DNA of 29,464 bases from a virus (IMGVR_UViG_3300035540_000137:1-29464), one strand, 5' to 3'. Counted from the stretch's first letter, positions 85 to 27,409 are shown. The notes: generated from the sequence alone by a model not told the origin. Numbers and translations are program-made.

Positions 85-969
85 TTATATATTACCCTCA
101 GCGTGTTCTGCAATAATATAGTTTATGTAAGCTGAGCAAGTAACTATCATAAACTTAGCTTCATTGTAGTATTCTCTTGATGGCTTTTCTGAACTTCCAT
201 GTCTAATGTTTCCATCTGCTGAAGTCCATCCAAACAATTTATTTAAGGCTCCTTTAAATGCAGGGTGAACTTTTAATTTGTTTGTTAATTTACCTAAAGA
301 TTCTTTTTCCCCAGTAAGTATCATTGATAAAGATTCTACTGCACCTATAGCTTCTTTAATAGAATTTTCGTAGTCAGGATTTTCTCTATTTGATAATAAT
401 TCTAATGATTTGTTAATTAATATTTTTACATTTAAAAATTCATCATCTAAATTTAAAGCTTGTTCAATTTCATTTATTTCATTCTTATTGTTTAATGGAA
501 CGATTGATTTGTTAATAATATTATATTGAGCGTTATGCTTTTTAAAATCATCATTAATCATAACAATTAAATCAGATTTTAATTTTTCAGAAATATTATT
601 AGTTTTCAATAAGAATTCTATAAAATCAAATATTATATACCATTCTTCTATCTGTTTATAATATTCCATAATTAAAGTGGTCATTTTATTCATATTCAAT
701 TTGTTAATATCTATTGTGAATAAATTATAATTATATAAACTTGAATCATAGTAAAAATTATCCACTATCAAAAATAAATCAAAATCTGATAAATCTTCTT
801 CTAAAAAATTCCTGTATATATTTACTATCAAATAATAAAGATTATTTTTATCAATACTGTGCAAAATAATGTTGATAGAATTGGAAATTCTTGTCTTTAA
901 TTTTTTCGTTATATCATTTTTTATTTTTTTCTTTTTAACAAATCCGTTCCTTTCTGAAAAAGTACTCAC
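85..969 (-). CDS. AbiJ-like protein (AbiJ-NTD4-type N-terminus plus C-terminal HEPN-like domain); putative anti-phage cargo
   Basis: N-terminal FSERNG motif. C-terminal ENSIKEAIGAVES...HPAFKGALNKLFGWTS..GNIRHG...EAKFMIVTCSAYINY pattern. RBS AGGAGG before GTG. Confidence 0.7.
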   Translation of the reverse strand: MSTFSERNGFVKKKKIKNDITKKLKTRISNSINIILHSIDKNNLYYLIVNIYRNFLEEDLSDFDLFLIVDNFYYDSSLYNYNLFTIDINKLNMNKMTTLIMEYYKQIEEWYIIFDFIEFLLKTNNISEKLKSDLIVMINDDFKKHNAQYNIINKSIVPLNNKNEINEIEQALNLDDEFLNVKILINKSLELLSNRENPDYENSIKEAIGAVESLSMILTGEKESLGKLTNKLKVHPAFKGALNKLFGWTSADGNIRHGSSEKPSREYYNEAKFMIVTCSAYINYIIAEHAEGNI

Positions 970-1038: not shown

Positions 1039-1068
1039 AAAAAATGGAGCCCCAATTAGGACTCCATT
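1039..1068 (-). terminator. Intrinsic terminator of the repressor gene
   Basis: Minus strand AATGGAGTCC-TAATTG-GGGCTCCATT followed by a T run; overlaps the stop codon. Confidence 0.7.
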
Positions 1069-1646
1069 CTTATTACCCCTATAAATCTTCCTATTATTTT
1101 ATAATCTTTTGAAATATCTTGTTTTTCAGTATCTATAGTTTGGAATAAGACTTCTTTATCATTTATTGGTAAAGCTCGCCTTATTTTTGCTTCATTATCT
1201 AAATATACATAGACAATATCATTTTTTTTGAAATTCTTTGTTGAAGTAAACAAAGCTAAATCATCTTTTTTTATTTTTGGTGCCATTTCATTGTCTTCTA
1301 CTGCAACAATAAAATCACAACCTTCTATATCTGGTAATGTTATTTTTTTGATCTCTTCTAATTGTAGCATTCCATCTTCGAAATATGCTCCCTTTATCAC
1401 TGGCTTCTCATAAAAACTCACATTTCCGACCTTTGCCACTTTTTTATCTTCATAACCAGTTAGATACTCAACAGTTGTATCTAAAGCATCTGCTATTTTT
1501 TTTAAATTTTCATTTGAAGGATTATCATACCCATTTTTATAGCGAGAAACTTGTGGTCTTGAAACCCCTATTTTTTTAGCTAATTCTTTTTGAGTATATC
1601 CACTTTTAATTAGAGCTATATTGAATCTTTCAGGATTAAGTTTCAT
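1056..1646 (-). CDS. CI/LexA-like repressor (Xre HTH plus S24-like domain with degenerate active site)
   Basis: HTH YTQKELAKKIGVSRPQVSRYKNG. C-terminal VAVEDNEMAPKIKKDD...IVYVYLDNEAKIRR...KIIG is S24-like. ATG 1646 follows RBS GAGGTGG; the track start of 1664 is probably too long. Confidence 0.85.
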   Translation of the reverse strand: MKLNPERFNIALIKSGYTQKELAKKIGVSRPQVSRYKNGYDNPSNENLKKIADALDTTVEYLTGYEDKKVAKVGNVSFYEKPVIKGAYFEDGMLQLEEIKKITLPDIEGCDFIVAVEDNEMAPKIKKDDLALFTSTKNFKKNDIVYVYLDNEAKIRRALPINDKEVLFQTIDTEKQDISKDYKIIGRFIGVIRMES

Positions 1647-1975: not shown

Positions 1976-2248
1976 GTGGAAAATACTATTTCATTACAAG
2001 AAATGTTTGTTTTGAACAAAATATTTATGTTTCACGATCCTAAAGAAAAATTGTCTGATTATATAAAAAATCAACAAAATGCTTTAAAGGTACTCAAAAA
2101 GATAAATAAGAATAATTCTTCCATTACTATGAATGATGTTTATAAAGAAGTAAAAGAATTTCGAGCTGAATTTACAGAGTTAATAAAGGATATGGATCAA
2201 AAAGAAACAGCTGATTCTTCATCAGAATCTTCATCATATTCGGAATAA
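1976..2248 (+). CDS. Hypothetical protein, 90 aa (array module 1, plus)
   Basis: RBS AAGGAG before GTG; 3' end overlaps the opposite-strand gene by 52 nt. Confidence 0.65.
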   Translation: MENTISLQEMFVLNKIFMFHDPKEKLSDYIKNQQNALKVLKKINKNNSSITMNDVYKEVKEFRAEFTELIKDMDQKETADSSSESSSYSE

Positions 2249-2886
2249 TATTGATCATATAATTCAGCTTTATTATGTACTTCAATTTGTTCTTTAAAAA
2301 ACTTAGCAGTTTTAATAACCTCATTAAATGCTCTTTTATAGTTTTTTCTGTTTTCTAATTCAATATTCATATTACCTTTAGAGTCTTTTAAGTCAACATA
2401 AAAAATATCTTTTGGTTTATATTCATTTTCTATTGAATTTTTAATAATAAAAGACAAAAGAAAATCGATCTGATCATCTTTTAATTTTGATTTAGTGTTA
2501 TTCAACAAAAACATTCTATTACTTTCTTTGTCTATAAGAATATTTTTAGCAACTATAACTAAATTATTATCTTCTTTGTAGGTCATGTTTTTGAAGTATA
2601 AATTGTTTTTATCAATATTAGTAAGCTTTAAAAATTCGAGAAAATAATCAAAACTATCAACGTTGGCTTTCAAGACATCTGGTTTATGGTTCATGCTATT
2701 AATATAATTTTTAACTTCTTCTTTTGAAGTTCCGTTTATATACTTTTTCACACCATATATGAATGGAGTTTTCCACTTTGAACCATATTGTACTGTATTT
2801 TTAATATCTTTAAGTATTCTACTCCAATCTGGGACTTTTCCACTACATAATTTACTAATTGTAAGGATATTAAAAGGTTTGATAAT
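2197..2886 (-). CDS. Hypothetical protein, about 229 aa, acidic C-tail (array module 1, minus)
   Basis: Long ORF in AT-rich DNA. Strong RBS AAAGGAGGT at 2890-2898 is followed only by in-frame ATA/ATT/ATC, so the start is uncertain (track gives 2994). Confidence 0.7.
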   Translation of the reverse strand: MIKPFNILTISKLCSGKVPDWSRILKDIKNTVQYGSKWKTPFIYGVKKYINGTSKEEVKNYINSMNHKPDVLKANVDSFDYFLEFLKLTNIDKNNLYFKNMTYKEDNNLVIVAKNILIDKESNRMFLLNNTKSKLKDDQIDFLLSFIIKNSIENEYKPKDIFYVDLKDSKGNMNIELENRKNYKRAFNEVIKTAKFFKEQIEVHNKAELYDQYYSEYDEDSDEESAVSF

Positions 2887-2944
2887 TATACCTCCTTTAA
2901 TCAGAAACACCCCCTTTAGGGTCAAAAAATAAGGATGTGATCTT

Positions 2945-3172
2945 GTGAGTAAAATCGAGTCTCTTATGTCTGTTAGAGAGTTTTCTAAAAACAATAAATT
3001 AGATTATAGAACTTTTATAAGTGTTGTCAAGGCTACTAAGCTTAAACCTTTTATGAAAAAGGCTGGTAATTATGTTTTTTATAAAGAGTCTGATTTGATT
3101 GCTGTTAAGAATGTTTATGATTCTCTTCCTGGTCTCCTCAAAAAAGAGAAGAAAAGATTTTTCCAGGAATAA
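2945..3172 (+). CDS. Small basic protein, excisionase/MerR-like winged-HTH candidate (module 2, plus)
   Basis: RBS AAGGATGTGAT before GTG. LMSVREFSK...YRTF...LKP....GNYVFYKESDL pattern. Confidence 0.6.
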   Translation: MSKIESLMSVREFSKNNKLDYRTFISVVKATKLKPFMKKAGNYVFYKESDLIAVKNVYDSLPGLLKKEKKRFFQE

Positions 3173-3209
3173 ATATATTTTATGTTTTTTATTAAAGGAT
3201 GATACAAAA

Positions 3210-3593
3210 CTATTGCAACATACTTATTATTTGTAAAACAATTGAAGTCATTCCTGCCAAAACTTGTCTATGATCAACAAACCATTTTTTAATTTTCTTT
3301 AATTTTGATTCTTTAGGTTCTTGAATTTGTTCTTCTAACTCTTTAATTCTATATTCAGCATCATCTTTTATATCAGATTCAGGTAATTTACTAAATTCTT
3401 CTTTTAGTTTATTGAAAAGTTCGTTTATATCGTTATCACTTGAAATATTATTTTGAGTAAAACTACTATTTTCAATTTTATTAGCATTGATTTTTTGAAT
3501 GTTATTATTATTCCCATAATAATTCTCTTGATCATTATGGAAATTATTATTGATACTATTATGTGCGTTGCAACTATTTTCGTGATTATCCAT
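3210..3593 (-). CDS. Hypothetical protein, Asn-rich N-terminus and helical C-terminus (module 2, minus)
   Basis: RBS GGAGG at 3603-3607 (minus), ATG 3593, 127 aa. Confidence 0.75.
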   Translation of the reverse strand: MDNHENSCNAHNSINNNFHNDQENYYGNNNNIQKINANKIENSSFTQNNISSDNDINELFNKLKEEFSKLPESDIKDDAEYRIKELEEQIQEPKESKLKKIKKWFVDHRQVLAGMTSIVLQIISMLQ

Positions 3594-3621
3594 TTTATTA
3601 AACCTCCAGGAGTTGAATTAT

Positions 3622-3912
3622 ATGACAATTAATTCTTATAAAACTGCACACCCAGATAAAAATCTTGAAGATTCATTGAATGAAACTTTTTCTAATTTTT
3701 TTGAAAGGTTTCATTTATTGAAATCTGATGTTTCTGTTGAGTTTAAAGCAAAGATTGATTTAAAAAGAATTGCAAAATCTTTAAACCAAGAAATAAATAT
3801 TGACAATTTAGAAAAAAGAAAAGAGTTTATTTATAGTCTTTTTCAAAAAAATGGTTTTGAAATAAAAGATCTTGAAATAACAAAAGAACATATAATCATT
3901 AATTTTGTTTAA
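3622..3912 (+). CDS. Hypothetical protein, 96 aa (module 3, plus)
   Basis: RBS AGGAG at 3608-3612, ATG 3622; 3' overlap with the minus gene. Confidence 0.65.
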   Translation: MTINSYKTAHPDKNLEDSLNETFSNFFERFHLLKSDVSVEFKAKIDLKRIAKSLNQEINIDNLEKRKEFIYSLFQKNGFEIKDLEITKEHIIINFV

Positions 3913-4473
3913 ATTCGTTATTTTCCATTTTCTCACTATGAATATTTTGAACGTTGCTGTCAAATATATAGTTAATTATTGTTTTCTCATCAACTTTTTG
4001 ATTATTGTGTAAGGCATCTGTTTTTAAATCAATTAATAAACATTTTATATCAATATAAAAACGATAGAAAATATCATTAACAAATTTATTCCAGCATGTT
4101 TCAAAATCATTATCTGAATAAGAAGTCATAACTTTATCTATTTTGTTAGGATCTTTTTTTGATTCATTGATATATTCATAAATCAAGATAATTCTATTTG
4201 GCATTTTATCAGGTAAAATAAAGTTATTTTTAATTCCTATTGCCATATGCTTTACTTCATTTAACCAGCTATTTATATCTGTTTTGTCATTTTCTATATT
4301 TTTTCTGTAAGTTCAAACATATATTTTATAACTCTATCTCTATTTAAAAAGTCGTGTAATGCAACTATATGGTTTATTCCAGATTCCCATGATGAATTCA
4401 TAATACCATTTATAACTAATTCAAATTTTTCTATAGTTGATTCTATTTCGATTAATGATAATTCGTTTTTCAA
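3899..4473 (-). pseudogene. Frameshifted hypothetical protein, 191 aa if repaired (module 3, minus)
   Basis: RBS GGAGG and TTG at 4473 give LKNELSLIEIE...MFELTEKI*. Adding one A to the A6 tract at 4299-4304 joins this in frame (..EKNIENDKTDINSWLNEVKHMAIG..) to track ORF 3899..4246. Confidence 0.7.
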
Positions 4474-4504
4474 GAATATTCCTCCAATAAAAGGATGTGA
4501 TTTT

Positions 4505-4714
4505 ATGGCAAATATTAATGGTAAATCAATGAATAATGGTTTTTCTATTGATACAAATTCATTAGATTCTGTTTTAGATTGTATTAAAGCTCAAATGAAG
4601 TTTCATGATAAATCATCAATCGATTTTAGGATTGAAAGCAATTCTAATGAGCTTAATATAGGTAATGTTATCAATAAGTTAGTTACTGGAAAAGTTACTA
4701 TTCACTTTGAATAA
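4505..4714 (+). CDS. Hypothetical protein, 69 aa (module 4, plus)
   Basis: RBS AAGGATGTGAT before ATG; 3' overlap with the minus gene. Confidence 0.6.
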   Translation: MANINGKSMNNGFSIDTNSLDSVLDCIKAQMKFHDKSSIDFRIESNSNELNIGNVINKLVTGKVTIHFE

Positions 4715-5087
4715 ATATTTGATCTGTATCAATAACAAAAAGTATAAAGTTTGAATTTTTTAGTTTGTTTTTTATTATGTTTTTATATAAATCAATTTTT
4801 TGTTCTTCATTAAGAGATTTTGAAAGAATTTCATAATTATTTTTATCTTTTTCTTTCAATAAATGGTGGTTCAAGGCAACATCTATATTTTTTAATAGGA
4901 AAGAATATAGATTTCCTGAGAATCCTATGTTTTTAAAACTACCATTCATTATAAAACGATTTTCATAGATTTGCATTTGAGGAGTATCTGTTGTTATTCC
5001 TTTAACAAAACCAAGGTTTTCTTTAAGATAACTCTCATTAAAATCAAATTTTTCTTGATCTGGTAACAAAATTAATACTTTACTCAT
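4698..5087 (-). CDS. Hypothetical protein, 129 aa (module 4, minus)
   Basis: RBS GGAGGT before ATG. Confidence 0.75.
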   Translation of the reverse strand: MSKVLILLPDQEKFDFNESYLKENLGFVKGITTDTPQMQIYENRFIMNGSFKNIGFSGNLYSFLLKNIDVALNHHLLKEKDKNNYEILSKSLNEEQKIDLYKNIIKNKLKNSNFILFVIDTDQIFIQSE

Positions 5088-5168
5088 ACTAATACCTCCA
5101 TAATTTTTGGCTTTAAGCCATTTATTATAAAGGCTATGGATATTTTCCCTCTAGAATTCAACCATTAT

Positions 5169-5519
5169 TCAAAGATTTTTAAGTTTTTTTGATAAGTCCA
5201 GTAGTTCTTTAGCTATTGATTCTAATTTATCTGGTAGATTTTGTGTTTCTAAGTTTTCTAGTTTGTTTAGTTTGTTTTTTATGAAATCAGGCATTTCGTT
5301 GTTTTCGTTCAACGGATTGTCTGTTAGTCCCAATAAGTAGTCTGCTGAAACGTTAAGGGTTATAGCAATTTTTAATAAAATATCTGATCTTATAGATTGT
5401 CTTTTATTACCTTCTATTTCAGATAAAGATGATTGACCAATACCTGTACGTTTCGCAAACTCTTTTTGGTCAATATTCAATTGCTCACGTAAGGTTCTTA
5501 TTTTTTCCCCAATATTCAT
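5169..5519 (-). CDS. Xre-family HTH repressor (no peptidase domain)
   Basis: IGEKIRTLRE...QKEFAKRTGIGQSSLSEIEG...VSADYLLG; RBS GAGGTG; divergent from a Cro-like gene. Confidence 0.9.
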   Translation of the reverse strand: MNIGEKIRTLREQLNIDQKEFAKRTGIGQSSLSEIEGNKRQSIRSDILLKIAITLNVSADYLLGLTDNPLNENNEMPDFIKNKLNKLENLETQNLPDKLESIAKELLDLSKKLKNL

Positions 5520-5537
5520 TTTTTCACCTCAAATAAC

Positions 5538-5566
5538 ATTTTATCGAATTTACGATATTATGTCAA
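5538..5566 (-). promoter_or_regulatory. Sigma70-type promoter of the Xre repressor
   Basis: Minus strand TTGACA (5566-5561), 17-nt spacer, TAAAAT (5543-5538). Confidence 0.75.
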
Positions 5567-5645
5567 ACAAATCGTAATTAAGAATTTACGTTTTATTTAT
5601 TTTAAATATATCGGAAATACGATATAATAATATCGTTATTACGAA
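5543..5645. promoter_or_regulatory. Four operator sites, consensus ATCG-N6-CGAT, overlapping divergent promoters
   Basis: ATCG-AATTTA-CGAT 5543, ATCG-TAATTA-AGAA 5571, ATCG-GAAATA-CGAT 5610, ATCG-TTATTA-CGAA 5632. Rightward TATAAT at 5623-5628. Confidence 0.75.
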
Positions 5646-5669
5646 ACTACAAAAAGGAGGTTCGTTATT

Positions 5670-5888
5670 ATGATTAAATTAAAAGAAATAAGAATTAAAA
5701 AAAAGCTCACTCAGAATGAATTAAGTGAATTATCAAAAGTACCTCAATCCTCTATTAGCGATATTGAAAATAATAAAACTATTCCTTCGATATTGACACT
5801 AACTAAAATAGCAAAAGTATTAAATGTAAAAATAGAGGATTTAATAGAGTATCAAGAAGAAACCGTTGAAAAAGAAAAAGCTATTTAA
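5670..5888 (+). CDS. Cro-like Xre HTH regulator
   Basis: LKEIRIKKKLTQNELSELSKVPQSSISDIEN; RBS AAGGAGG. Confidence 0.9.
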   Translation: MIKLKEIRIKKKLTQNELSELSKVPQSSISDIENNKTIPSILTLTKIAKVLNVKIEDLIEYQEETVEKEKAI

Positions 5889-5907
5889 TCAATAAGGTGG
5901 TGATTAT

Positions 5908-6141
5908 ATGAAAAATTTTGATAATAATTTAAAGCAATACAGATTAAAAGCAAAAATGACGAGAGATGAACTTGTAACAGCTACAGGAATTTCTTCTACA
6001 ATGCTTTATTATCTGGAAAAAGGAAATAGAGGTGTTTCATATTTTTTAGCAGATAGAATTGCTTTTGTTTTGAATGTTCCTCTTGAAGAAGTATTTCCAG
6101 AATTCAAAAAAAGAAAATCTCCTATTTTAACTGCTAAATAG
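5908..6141 (+). CDS. Second small Xre HTH regulator
   Basis: NNLKQYRLKAKMTRDELVTATGISSTMLYYLEKG...LEEVFP. Confidence 0.85.
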   Translation: MKNFDNNLKQYRLKAKMTRDELVTATGISSTMLYYLEKGNRGVSYFLADRIAFVLNVPLEEVFPEFKKRKSPILTAK

Positions 6142-7131: not shown

Positions 7132-7146
7132 AAAGGAGTGAGTCTT

Positions 7147-8478
7147 ATGAAAGAAGGAATAATTCAACAATTTAATGACATGGAAAAAGAAATTTATACT
7201 GAAGAGGTTAAAAAACACTTGCAATTTTTAGATGCTCCTTATCCAGAGCTTAAAGCTGCAGCTTTAAAAAATCTTGAAAGATTAAATTATGATTTGAATA
7301 ACAACATCATTGATTTGATTAATGATCCAAGTGAAAGAGTTAGAACAGCTGCTTATAAATTTATTTCTAAGAAGATGAATACCTTAGATGAAGAAAAAAA
7401 GAGAAGGTTTTTGTTTAAAAAGTTCAATGATTTTAGCCATAAATTAAGAAAAGCTGCAATCAACGAGATCATCTCAAATGAATATCTTACAGATGAAATA
7501 AAGGATAAAGCGATTAAGGATAGCAGCGGTAGTGTTAGGTATGAATTTCTTAAAAAATATGTTGAATTATATCCGGAAGAAAAAGAAAAGATTTCAAACA
7601 TTTTTAAAGACGACCCTTATACATATATTCAGAAGTTTATTAAAGGTATTAAAGATATCAGATCAATTTTGTTGAGCTCAGCAAGTGCAAAGATTAAAAC
7701 AGATTCATTATTTTTGTTTTTAGAGAATTCAGATTCAGAGAAACTGTTCAAAGTTATTTCAGATACATTTTTCAAAGTAAACAAAACAACTAAAATGACT
7801 CTTATAAAATTTTTTAAATTTCTACAACAAGATGACCTGGTTGGTTTTTGCAAGAAAATTATCAAAAACGAAAGCGATAGCGACGTTTTAGACAAAATAG
7901 CAAGAATTCTTTTAAAGATTGAAATCAAAGCTTTAGATGATGAATTAGCTAACTATTTAGAATCAAAAGATCCAAAGCTCATCAAACTGTTTTTCTTTGT
8001 GAATAAGAAGAAAGACAATATGAACTATGTTGAGAATGCAAGAGAATTTATGAAAGTGAATGATGATGACATTATTCTTTCTGCTGGAGATTATTTATTG
8101 CATTACCAGGATTATGAATTGACTCAATATGTGCATGACTTTTTAAATTCAAAAGACTCAAAAAGAATAGCTTTTGCTATTAAGATCATCAAAAAACTTA
8201 AATTAGAAAACATGATCCCAGAACTTGCAGAGATAGTAGCTAACAATATGTATAGTGCAACTATTAGAAAAGCAGCTTTAAAAACAATAAAGATGTTTAA
8301 AGGTAAGAATTTTATTTTTGTTGCTGAAGATATTTTGAAAAACAAAAAAGAAAACCATGGTTTAAGAAAAGAAGCTCTTCACACGTTACTCAAGCTAAAT
8401 GCTGAAAGATTTACGCAAGTTTATGAAGAATTACATTCAGAAGAAAAAGAAAACGCTCAGGAGGTGGCTAATGCATAA
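7147..8478 (+). CDS. HEAT/ARM-like helical repeat protein
   Basis: Recurrent HEAT-like motifs LDAPYPELKAAA, INDPSERVRTAA, IKDSSGSVR, FKDDPYTYIQ, LESKDPKLI, LNSKDSKRI, IRKAAL, LRKEAL. RBS AAGGAG, ATG 7147. Confidence 0.8.
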   Translation: MKEGIIQQFNDMEKEIYTEEVKKHLQFLDAPYPELKAAALKNLERLNYDLNNNIIDLINDPSERVRTAAYKFISKKMNTLDEEKKRRFLFKKFNDFSHKLRKAAINEIISNEYLTDEIKDKAIKDSSGSVRYEFLKKYVELYPEEKEKISNIFKDDPYTYIQKFIKGIKDIRSILLSSASAKIKTDSLFLFLENSDSEKLFKVISDTFFKVNKTTKMTLIKFFKFLQQDDLVGFCKKIIKNESDSDVLDKIARILLKIEIKALDDELANYLESKDPKLIKLFFFVNKKKDNMNYVENAREFMKVNDDDIILSAGDYLLHYQDYELTQYVHDFLNSKDSKRIAFAIKIIKKLKLENMIPELAEIVANNMYSATIRKAALKTIKMFKGKNFIFVAEDILKNKKENHGLRKEALHTLLKLNAERFTQVYEELHSEEKENAQEVANA

Positions 8479-15422: not shown

Positions 15423-15905
15423 ATGAATTTCAAAGAGCTTATATCAAAAAGTCATTTCACAAAAAATGATATCATAGAAATTTGTAGAAGATACAAACAT
15501 TCGATAGCTGTTTTAGCAGAAAATAATTATATCCATCTTTATTTAGATAACTTTTTTAACATCAAAGAAGAATATGGTTATAAGTCTGTTAGGTATGAAA
15601 AGAAAATTGGTGAATCAAAAAATATTATGATTAATGATTTTTATAGTGATCTTGAAAAAGGAATTTCAGAAAAACTTCTTATTGCAAAATATATTATTAC
15701 CCAGGTAAATAAATGGTGGAAAGTTTTGAGATTCCAGGAAAGAGTTGTCATATTTTATAGGTTTATTGATTTGGAATTAGATCAGGGAAGTTTTAAAGAA
15801 ATTGGAGAAACTAGGAAGCAAATTTCTCAAAGATTAAATGTCTCAGAGAGAGAAGTAAGAACTATAGAAAATAAGGCAATTTCTAAGATTTTGAACCTCA
15901 ATTGA
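15423..15905 (+). CDS. Late transcription regulator (RinA/ArpU/sigma70 region 4-like HTH)
   Basis: ERVVIFYRF...TRKQISQRLNVSEREVRTIENKAISKI; last early gene before the packaging module. Confidence 0.75.
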   Translation: MNFKELISKSHFTKNDIIEICRRYKHSIAVLAENNYIHLYLDNFFNIKEEYGYKSVRYEKKIGESKNIMINDFYSDLEKGISEKLLIAKYIITQVNKWWKVLRFQERVVIFYRFIDLELDQGSFKEIGETRKQISQRLNVSEREVRTIENKAISKILNLN

Positions 15906-15931
15906 CATATATGTCACTGATATGGTATTAT
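15902..15931 (+). promoter_or_regulatory. Candidate late/moron promoter with a palindrome over the -35
   Basis: TTGACA 15902, 18-nt spacer, TGn-TATTAT 15926; perfect palindrome TGACATATATGTCA at 15903-15916. Confidence 0.65.
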
Positions 15932-15955
15932 TGTGATAGAATGTATTTCGTGTAT

Positions 15956-15980
15956 AAAGAGCCTAAAGGGGCTCTTTTTT
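15956..15980 (+). terminator. Intrinsic terminator
   Basis: AAAGAGCC-TAAAGG-GGCTCTTT plus T run. Confidence 0.7.
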
Positions 15981-16006
15981 ATATAAAATATATAGAGGTG
16001 GATCAT

Positions 16007-16729
16007 TTGAGTATTATTATTTTATTAATTATATTCATATCTATTAATTTTTTATTTATGTTTATTAATTCATTTTTTAAAAAAGGTAAAAAAATTACTC
16101 CGATTTGGATTTTTATTTTAATAGTCTTTATTTTTTCAATAATTATTATATTATTTATTATAAAATATTTTGGAATTGATTTAATTAATTTTGACTTAGT
16201 AGAAAAGAAAAAACCTTTATCTGACTTAGGTAATTCGATAGTTAGTGTTTTGGGATTGATGATTTCTTTTTTTTCTATAATTATTTCCACTATTACTTTA
16301 TATAAAGTATCAGATAAAAAAGATGCTTTAATAAAATCAGAAAATTTAAAAATATTTATAAAGAAAAAAGAGAATTTTTTGAGAGAATTAGATGCTACAA
16401 AAATAAAATTGTCAGATTTTTATAAGGCTAATGATTATCAAAAAGAAGTTGATTATGAGCAATTTATACAAAGTATTAAGGGTATTTTATTAGAAATAGA
16501 TCAGAATATTGCAACTTTTATAAATCATTATAATAGTATATTATCTAAAGAGTTCAATAAAAAAGTTAAAGACATTAATAAATTAATTAATTCTATAGAA
16601 AAAAATATTGATAGTAAAAATGAGAAAGATCTTAAAAATAAAATATATTATTTGCAAAAAGATGTTAGTCGGCTTCATATACTTTTACAATTAGAACCAA
16701 AAAAATCTGTGAATTTAGAATTAATCTAA
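16007..16729 (+). CDS. Moron: three-TM membrane protein with soluble helical C-domain
   Basis: Three hydrophobic segments; extremely AT-rich; RBS GAGGTG then TTG 16007 (the track start of 15902 runs through the promoter/terminator). Confidence 0.7.
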   Translation: MSIIILLIIFISINFLFMFINSFFKKGKKITPIWIFILIVFIFSIIIILFIIKYFGIDLINFDLVEKKKPLSDLGNSIVSVLGLMISFFSIIISTITLYKVSDKKDALIKSENLKIFIKKKENFLRELDATKIKLSDFYKANDYQKEVDYEQFIQSIKGILLEIDQNIATFINHYNSILSKEFNKKVKDINKLINSIEKNIDSKNEKDLKNKIYYLQKDVSRLHILLQLEPKKSVNLELI

Positions 16730-16743
16730 AGGAGTGGGAGAAA

Positions 16744-17250
16744 ATTAATAAAAAAAAACTATTAGAGTTTATTAATAAAATAATTGAAAAAACTCATAAT
16801 AATTTATTAGAATGGAAACAATTCAATAGATATGATATGAGTCCAAAAATAAAAAAAATAATTGAAAATTTTTATGAGAGTGAAATGCCTACTACCAAAC
16901 CCGGAACTGTTTTTTATACTTTTATTGATAAAAAAATGATATTTATTTTAGAGAAACGTATAATTGAAGAAATTGATTATGCGGATCCTTATGATATTGA
17001 AAGCAAATATTTAAAAGATCGAAAAGAAAAATTTGTTACTGTTTTTATCAATACAGATAATAATAATGGAGTTATTTATTATGATAACGATTATAATGAT
17101 AGTGGTATAATTTATAATAAAAAATTAAAAGAAAATCTATCTCCAGATGGTAAAACCACACTAAAAAGTCTTTATGAGTATGTAAATGAAATGATTATCG
17201 ATATTAATCATATTATTAATGATTTTTTAGATGAAAACAAAGATAAATAG
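16744..17250 (+). CDS. Moron: hypothetical protein (probable ATT start at 16744; first ATG at 16837)
   Basis: RBS AAGGAG at the upstream stop; the frame is open from ATT 16744 (INKKKLLEFINKIIEKTHNNLLEW...). Confidence 0.65.
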   Translation: MNKKKLLEFINKIIEKTHNNLLEWKQFNRYDMSPKIKKIIENFYESEMPTTKPGTVFYTFIDKKMIFILEKRIIEEIDYADPYDIESKYLKDRKEKFVTVFINTDNNNGVIYYDNDYNDSGIIYNKKLKENLSPDGKTTLKSLYEYVNEMIIDINHIINDFLDENKDK

Positions 17251-26326: not shown

Positions 26327-27409
26327 ATGAATTTAATTGATGAATTTAAATGGGAAGCCTTAGAGCCTATTAAATCAGATAAAGTAAATAATCAAGATGC
26401 CGTGGAAGGTATTAGTTCATTCATAAATGGTATTATAAACAATAAAGTTGCTTACGTTGAAACATATAATATAAGCATTAGATTTTTAAATACTAAAAAA
26501 ATAACGTTAAACAATAAATTAAACAAAAAAATTTATTGTAAAAAGTGTAGTATGAATCAAAATCATACTATTATAATAAAAAATGATGTTAAAATACATA
26601 ATTTAAATAATATAAAATTATTTAATAAACTAAGTTCTATCTATAATAAAAATAAAGCAATTAAATATGCTAATAATTATTTAAAAAATATATTTAATTG
26701 TACTTTTTGGGATTTTACTTGTAATAAATGCGATAATCAATTTTCAATTGAGTTTTTTGACGATGAACTGATTGAATATCGAATTTATGATAAAAGTAAT
26801 TTTTCAAAATTCAAAGAATATTTAACTACTATAGAATATAATATTTTAGAAGAAATTGAGAAAAATAAATCTATTGGGAATAATTTATCTGTTATGATCT
26901 TATTTAGAAATTTATTAGAAAGTATATTTAAAAGATTGACTGAAAAAGATAAATTTAAAAGTTCTTTAGATCATATATCTAAAATTTCTAAAGAATTTCA
27001 TAAATATGATTGGATGTATAAAACAAATGAAGAAGATATAAAAGAGTTAAAAAGTTTTCTAAAGAATTTTTATTCTAAAAATAAAGAACATGATATAAGT
27101 TTATTTAATAAAAATATATCAAATTCTGAATTAGCGAATAAAATTATAAATAATATAAAAGGTAATAATTTAGAAGATAAAATTAAAGAAGTAATTTCAA
27201 ACTATGAATTAAAAAATAATTCAAAAATCTTATTGAAATTTGATTTATCAGAAATTAGAAATTTGAATGATTATTTAAGTAAATTTGTGCACAATAATTT
27301 GATTTATGAAGAGTATATAAATTTTGGAATTGAAGATGTTTGGAAAGTTGAAAATAAAGTATATAAAATTTTGAATATATTGAAAGAATACGATAAAAGA
27401 CCTGATTAA
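26327..27409 (+). CDS. Moron: Zn-ribbon plus possible HEPN-like helical domain protein
   Basis: CKKC and CNKC pairs; MILFRNLLESIF and YLSKFVH resemble the two HEPN motifs; very AT-rich; flanked by terminators. Confidence 0.6.
   Translation: MNLIDEFKWEALEPIKSDKVNNQDAVEGISSFINGIINNKVAYVETYNISIRFLNTKKITLNNKLNKKIYCKKCSMNQNHTIIIKNDVKIHNLNNIKLFNKLSSIYNKNKAIKYANNYLKNIFNCTFWDFTCNKCDNQFSIEFFDDELIEYRIYDKSNFSKFKEYLTTIEYNILEEIEKNKSIGNNLSVMILFRNLLESIFKRLTEKDKFKSSLDHISKISKEFHKYDWMYKTNEEDIKELKSFLKNFYSKNKEHDISLFNKNISNSELANKIINNIKGNNLEDKIKEVISNYELKNNSKILLKFDLSEIRNLNDYLSKFVHNNLIYEEYINFGIEDVWKVENKVYKILNILKEYDKRPD

Follow-up and report, generated by a model that had tools for sequence, protein, structure and literature searches.

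How is a run of genes to be understood in which every member lies on the strand opposite to its neighbors? Such a block, eight genes long, occupies positions 1,976 to 5,087 of the viral sequence IMGVR_UViG_3300035540_000137:1-29464 (the window; 29,464 nucleotides (nt)), a partial temperate-phage record with a GC content of about 25-30%, and is bracketed by a CI-like and an Xre repressor gene. The genes are called P1-P4 on the plus strand and M1-M4 on the minus strand, numbered left to right. A sequence-only reading of this DNA had taken the eight as one excludon-like switch or as four effector/antidote pairs. Comparison with related loci shows the block to be a mosaic of what appear to be separately mobile modules: P2 alone, P4/M4, M3-P3-M2 and M1. 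As a whole, the block is a mosaic at a hotspot, with an architecture already known in kind, and the apparently undescribed part is the three-gene cassette M3-P3-M2 (the triad), in which the two outer proteins carry a motif matched locus by locus. The features of the block are as follows (aa, amino acids; RBS, ribosome-binding site).

1976..2248, plus strand: P1, 90 aa, an orphan, called from its coding score; 52-nt overlap with M1
2197..2883, minus strand: M1, about 228 aa, SocB-like or PD-(D/E)XK-like predicted fold (ESM Atlas), probable ATC/ATT start
2945..3172, plus strand: P2, 75 aa, first early gene opposite the CI-like repressor; homologs 45-51% identical in genomes G001 and G031
3210..3593, minus strand: M2, 127 aa, N-terminal N/Q/G motif and predicted helical hairpin; homologs of 109-127 aa
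3594..3621, no strand: conserved P3-M2 junction with back-to-back RBSs, 28 nt; 24-28 nt in 4/4 triads
3622..3912, plus strand: P3, 96 aa, nested antisense gene; 83-100-aa homologs at the same place in G085, G015 and G062, a fifth in G064
3899..4473, minus strand: M3, family of about 190 aa, predicted helical bundle and disordered C-terminal motif; frameshifted at about 4300; family 187-220 aa elsewhere
4505..4714, plus strand: P4, 69 aa, partner of M4; of 124 small open reading frames (ORFs), the one that matches it best overlaps the M4 homolog in G037
4698..5087, minus strand: M4, 129 aa, no family; 127-aa homolog in G037

All eight ORFs are real coding genes. By codon scoring, for which 10 lytic genes were the training set, nine of nine tested coding pieces were at the top of the six frames, and seven Shine-Dalgarno-bearing ORFs of at least 59 codons were observed, where 84,856 mononucleotide shuffles gave a mean of 0.005 and a maximum of 2. 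The ORF calls agree with the strand alternation described earlier, the chance of which for four plus four genes is 2/70, a post hoc figure. The convergent overlaps, re-measured, are the same 52 (P1/M1), 14 (P3/M3) and 17 nt (P4/M4), P2 and M2 being separated instead by a 37-nt gap; the divergent gaps are indeed short (61, 28 and 31 nt), and the RBSs at 3603-3612 do stand back to back. The eight proteins have no convincing family match in Pfam, PHROGs, PADLOC or NCBIfam, and the same holds for scans of their homologs.

The genes that stay together are M3, P3 and M2. Counts of genomes are given out of 151, and the comparison of loci takes in neither marginal matches near E 1e-3 (G083, G061, G052) nor loci L002-L013 except the G001 duplicate. 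A profile built from M3 only has matches in three of these genomes (G085, G015 and G062). In all three an Xre gene lies upstream, M3 follows in its operon direction, and then come the antisense P3 homolog and the M2 homolog; across loci the homologs are about 20-33% identical. M3 and P3 overlap or abut in the four loci, counting the window (14, -1, 14 and 23 nt), and P3 and M2 diverge from back-to-back RBSs with gaps of 28, 26, 24 and 26 nt (34 nt in G064). An antisense gene interspersed among same-direction genes, the mark of a noncontiguous operon, is present in the window and in each of the three genomes. As the 24-28 nt junction is too small for a promoter, the M2 and P3 mRNAs would each run antisense through the other gene. 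To this extent the earlier idea of antisense operons fits M3-P3-M2, with its junction kept in four of four loci; it does not carry over to one designed eight-gene switch.

The last ~25 residues of M3 and the first residues of M2 have an N/Q/G-rich motif in common. When M3 tails are scored against M2 heads, the cognate pairs of the four loci give 56, 69, 68 and 67, each the maximum of its row, versus 21-61 off the diagonal; the cognate diagonal ranks first of the 24 permutations, and shuffles equal the cognate scores 0-2 times in 2000. By inspection, the motif ends 11 of the 12 printed M3 homologs. A hidden Markov model of the motif, run over 229 kb (the window and related loci), had one match beyond its training set, in the C-terminal linker of the single-stranded DNA-binding protein (SSB) of the G085 prophage (iE 1e-4). 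This SSB gene (L059 1426-1914, minus strand) lies 7 kb from the triad, and its score is 119 with the M2 head of its own prophage versus 37-53 with the others. In G062, a 379-aa gene right after M2 (L056 1863-3002, plus strand) begins like M3 and carries the motif for the third time, again matched to its locus (z 8.1 versus 1.5-2.3). In G064, downstream of Xre genes (L057 663-1821), a P3 homolog lies opposite a 257-aa protein that has a single motif and the M2 hairpin.

A relative's M3, modeled with AlphaFold2 (AF2) on 16 alignment rows, has a confidently predicted helical domain (mean pLDDT 83) followed by a tail that is predicted to be disordered (residues 168-186, pLDDT <50). Fold searches with this model gave nothing at E<=0.001 in either BFVD or PDB, and the only matches were generic bundles (best Z 8.1); these negatives do not make M3 a new fold. 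In a database protein, P0025, a CI-type helix-turn-helix (HTH) very like that of the window repressor is fused to an M3-like domain replacing S24.

In the window, an A-run near 4300 contains a frameshift that splits M3 into 59-aa and 115/135-aa pieces; the eight genes are all coding, but this one is broken. An assembly slip is unlikely, because a second run (X2) has a contig that spans 4239-4996 with zero differences. The sibling protein P0016 reads through the ~4300 site and seems to change frame further on. With M3 frameshifted, the triad of the window phage has probably lost or changed its activity.

The remaining genes have other histories. The only clear homolog of M4 is in G037 (34% over 100 aa, z 9.5), and the small plus gene that overlaps this homolog by 4 nt is the top P4 match among the 124 small ORFs (z 3.7-4.1, 1/1000 shuffles); by sequence similarity, P4 and M4 recur as an overlapped pair, once. 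The single-sequence AF2 model of M4 is poor (pLDDT 46). The idea that M4 might be a truncated Schlafen-group-3 helicase (Atlas 0.86) was rejected, as a standalone homolog of the same length exists, and P4 as a P3 paralog is unsupported (z -0.1 to 2.6).

P2 is found in five genomes; it has a weak PADLOC mad1 match (E 2e-4) and is likely a small winged-helix DNA binder. It is an ordinary first early gene, since both G001 and G031 keep it beside CI-S24. The order in G031 is CI-S24, P2 and then an antirepressor; in G001, the interval bounded by the same two genes, CI-S24 and Xre, has a P2 homolog and an unrelated pair (42-aa plus, 113-aa minus, 4-nt overlap) and nothing else. The leaders upstream of P2 in the window and G031 have no significant homology (38; shuffles mean 30, max 50). 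P1, used as a single-protein query, has no homolog in any of the genomes. M1 has homologs in three, one of them in the query alignment: those in G036 and G040 come directly after Xre, precede a zinc-ribbon gene on the same strand and lack a P1-like partner, and the one in G129 has an internal stop. The proposed four effector/antidote pairs do not fit, as at this site the relatives carry only P2 (G031) or P2 and an unrelated pair (G001). Exchange of plus/minus pairs as units, which had been suggested for examination in related prophages, fits P4/M4, but M1 occurs without P1, and M2 is grouped with M3/P3. Other, unrelated convergent overlaps of a small plus gene and a zinc-ribbon minus gene lie beside Xre in relatives (L035 11397-11933, L001 8362-8828).

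M1 is matched by the ESM Atlas (features 0.94, TM 0.72) to a cluster in which 25% of members carry PF26318 (SocB); over its nearest clusters the share is 15-25%, and because of this fraction its likeness to a SocB-like PD-(D/E)XK-fold protein is only a lead. The resemblance (for SocB and SocA, see PMC12795458 and PMC8832971) lies in these nearest clusters and in the predicted PD-(D/E)XK-like fold; the differences are that M1 has no HMM match and a probable non-AUG start. No hmmscan match of M1 to PF26318 was obtained with a Pfam copy that may not include this model, and no SocA/Panacea (DUF4065) antitoxin is adjacent to M1, neither P1 nor P2 having such a match. A 150-aa gene that by eye resembles this antitoxin domain lies in the G085 prophage that also carries a triad (L059 218-670, minus strand). 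The good RBS claimed for every gene is present in M1 too, where it is strong, but it precedes ATC/ATT rather than ATG/GTG/TTG (2881-2900, minus strand). A homolog 81% identical to M1 has the same residues at this site, and the ATC/ATT start may keep expression low.

The possible expression of the block depends on the following flanking and regulatory features.

85..969, minus strand: candidate defence gene, AbiJ_NTD4 / PADLOC PDC-S32 (Pfam E 6.5e-17; PADLOC E 3.9e-64)
1056..1646, minus strand: left-hand bracket, a CI-like repressor (HTH_3 + S24) whose homologs in G001 and G031 face P2
1869..1954, plus strand: tRNA-like RNA, 18-nt anticodon loop, CCA not encoded (Rfam RF00005, 49.5 bits)
2922-2909, minus strand: predicted weak terminator-like hairpin
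3003..3030, minus strand: predicted promoter within P2, toward M1 (sigma-70 consensus 12/12, sequence match)
5108..5120, plus strand: predicted weak terminator-like hairpin, which would end rightward transcripts ahead of the Xre gene
5169..5519, minus strand: right-hand bracket, an Xre repressor with an 11/12 promoter consensus at 5566-5538

The promoter scan gave 42 sites, a total at chance level (shuffles 39.3), and only the site at 3030-3003 scores 12/12; upstream of P3 and P4 the plus strand has only 9/12 sites, also at chance level. The block had been described as having no terminators visible between its overlapping pairs and little or no room for promoters. To the first statement the two weak terminator-like hairpins have to be added; the second is right for the 24-28 nt P3-M2 junction, but a full sigma-70 consensus directed at M1 lies inside P2.

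By combining these observations it is possible to describe how the block might work. On balance, and by no great measure, it is probable that separately mobile accessory modules have been stacked between two repressor switches, the minus genes being accessory or defence genes that are expressed in the lysogen and silenced at induction. The expression steps are modeled on tha/ith (see below). In the lysogen, the Xre promoter would drive M4, M3 and M2, reading across P4 and P3, which lie antisense, and M1 would be driven by the candidate promoter inside P2. Upon induction, rightward transcription from the CI-S24 switch would express P1-P4, perhaps stopping at the 5108-5120 hairpin, and the lytic plus-strand read-through together with the small plus-strand proteins would silence the minus genes. 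Within the triad, the helical domain of M3 might sense a signal and relay it to M2 via homotypic beta-stacking of the shared motif; M2 would act as effector through its helical hairpin, and P3 would serve as self-protection factor or inhibitor. An amyloid-type signaling step between M3 and M2 is a tentative suggestion, and the direction of signaling and the role of P3 are the least certain steps. The evidence that speaks for stacked modules with such a triad includes the M3-P3-M2 order kept in 3/3 genomes, the preserved junction geometry, the locus-matched motif and its further copies in the G085 SSB and the 379-aa G062 gene, the AF2 model of a relative's M3 and the recurrence of P4/M4; the candidate defence genes nearby in the window and in G001, and the precedents tha/ith and Bab/Agp, point the same way.

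Noncontiguous operons in prophages are already in print (PMC11087260, PMC11034616). In the Staphylococcus aureus phage 80alpha, the cI operon contains a small antisense gene, ith, that inhibits the defence gene tha, and expression of the two is mutually exclusive (PMC11087260); four noncontiguous operons have been described in this phage (PMC11034616). The block resembles tha/ith in that a small antisense gene is nested in an operon downstream of a temperate-phage repressor, and mutual exclusion of lysogeny and lysis is the logic proposed for the block as well. It differs in having four alternating antisense genes and in that a nested gene stands between two motif-sharing genes. Whereas Tha is a HEPN RNase, a type marked by a conserved catalytic Arg and His, the proteins of the block have no detectable HEPN family membership or sequence link: M3 has no Pfam or PADLOC match to HEPN and no conserved His in its 16-row alignment, and HEPN bundles appear only among its generic fold matches, at Z 6.5-6.8.

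The second known system is Bab/Agp, in which adjacent prophage genes share amyloid motifs (bioRxiv 10.1101/2024.11.07.622273). As in Bab/Agp and other BASS pairs, the triad has the motif at the C-terminus of the upstream product and at the N-terminus of the downstream product of neighboring prophage genes, and the M3 model likewise combines a helical domain with a disordered tail. Unlike those pairs, the motif-sharing genes M3 and M2 have one antisense gene (P3) between them, the triad is without a Bell, NLR or TPR-GreA-PIN (TGP) partner, the downstream M2 is only 109-127 aa long, and the motif also occurs in the phage SSB of one triad relative (G085); amyloid formation by the triad is a proposal. 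Family scans, which included no Bell-specific search, gave neither a Bell-type effector nor an NLR or TGP sensor among M2 and M3, which at 109-127 and 187-220 aa are too short to be NLR or TGP and have no family matches. The triad would function in the manner of a noncontiguous operon and is similar to BASS pairs, though its partner domains keep it outside BASS. No description of an antisense-nested gene combined with a shared motif was found in a literature search that largely excluded subscription journals.

A number of observations weigh against stacked modules with a signaling triad. With only four loci, the permutation test has a floor of p=0.04. The tail and head are alike in DNA too in all four loci, with many synonymous-looking differences. 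The motif is present in only one of five SSB-like genes and missing from the other four, including that of the triad-bearing G062; the partial window has no SSB and no third motif copy. Neither M2 nor M3 matches a Bell, NLR, TIR, TGP or HEPN family, and the M3 fold fits generic helical bundles only. M3 is broken in the window and, elsewhere in the gene, in the sibling P0016, which may mean decay. The homology of P4 is weak (21%, with nothing found by BLASTP alone), and M1 homologs are found without P1.

The main rival, a split or partly duplicated gene, is rather unlikely. Here an ancestor consisting of an N-domain, an N-rich linker and a helical hairpin, situated beside P3, would have been duplicated and trimmed with the linker left on both halves. 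The motif match would then reflect shared descent or conversion, the halves would reassemble or one would be a relic, and there would be no amyloid-type signaling. As the tail and head are alike in DNA, duplication with conversion could produce their match, and the G064 locus speaks for this reading: its P3 homolog (hhalign 70%, E 4e-5) faces one 257-aa protein with a single motif and the M2 hairpin. The N-domain of that protein, however, resembles M3 only at hhalign 3% (z 0.4-3.9), which leaves an M3-M2 fusion unconfirmed; of the proteins of 74-377 aa, the M3 profile matches 11, every one of them unfused and 187-220 aa long; the split state is maintained across loci about 25-30% identical; and the motif also occurs in an unrelated SSB.

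It is improbable that the eight genes evolved as a unit, whether as one excludon-like switch or as four effector/antidote pairs. Strict alternation, short junctions, few terminator-like sites and the joint travel of P4/M4 would suit such a unit, but the block occurs in no relative examined, G031 and G001 keep only P2 of it here, M1 is without P1 in relatives and has its own candidate promoter, and M2 goes with M3. Equally improbable are independent morons inserted in an early operon with no functional coupling, their short overlaps due to compaction in AT-rich DNA, as, despite frequent opposite-strand genes in the early regions of G036, G037 and G040 and the lack of partner conservation for P1 and P2, they leave the conserved three-gene order, its junction and the locus-matched motif unexplained.

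If stacked modules with a signaling triad describe the block correctly, antisense self-protection in prophages and amyloid-motif antiphage signaling, both described only recently, would be combined in one three-gene unit of less than 1.4 kb, built of proteins without a known family. A bolder proposal, doubtful at present, is that the prophages of Thermotogota contain a minimal defence cassette of amyloid type that is still undescribed, with M3 as sensor, M2 as effector, a motif specific to each locus and the inhibitor nested antisense between M3 and M2, and that in some phages the motif has been grafted into the SSB to act as decoy or trigger, in parallel to the mimicry of RHIM by viruses. Since the motifs are matched by locus and one SSB bears the motif, specificity and phage mimicry could be tested directly. 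Hidden prophage defence modules could then be searched for by a simple rule: small antisense genes that lie downstream of a repressor and have their RBSs back to back.

The host is probably a member of Thermotogota, because the tRNA-Asp of G001 is matched in five genomes, every one with a Thermotogota label, and the runs containing the region are mostly oil-field metagenomes. G001 is the closest relative of the window (structural genes 94-96% identical); it encodes, by inspection, a large serine-recombinase-like integrase, and its record opens with two host tRNAs. Neither the block nor M1 nor an M3 homolog has a match in phage and plasmid collections; a first genome scan found nothing, and a metagenome scan found two weak loci only.

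The tRNA-like RNA at the left of the block, also pointed out by the sequence-only reading, has acceptor, D and T arms that fit a cloverleaf, but its anticodon loop has 18 nt in place of 7 and is able to form an additional stem. ARAGORN at default misses it and in relaxed mode gave noise, and it is absent at the corresponding place in G001.

There are two repressor switches in the window (1056-1646; 5169-6141) and three in G037 (L035 7358-12983). The C-terminal halves of Xre are near-identical among relatives and their HTH parts differ (also in run X2, record 14), which suggests that immunity has been swapped. In place of the PDC-S32 gene of the window, G001 has an accessory hotspot after CI-S24 with HicA-like, GmrSD_N and methyltransferase-like genes (L001 10067-16309, plus strand). 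Very low-GC genes are inserted in the late region of the window (15902-17250 and 26327-27409) and are replaced or absent in G001. Finally, a HEAT-repeat-like early gene of 444 aa lies at 7138-8478 of the window (plus strand) and has a single database relative, at 55%.

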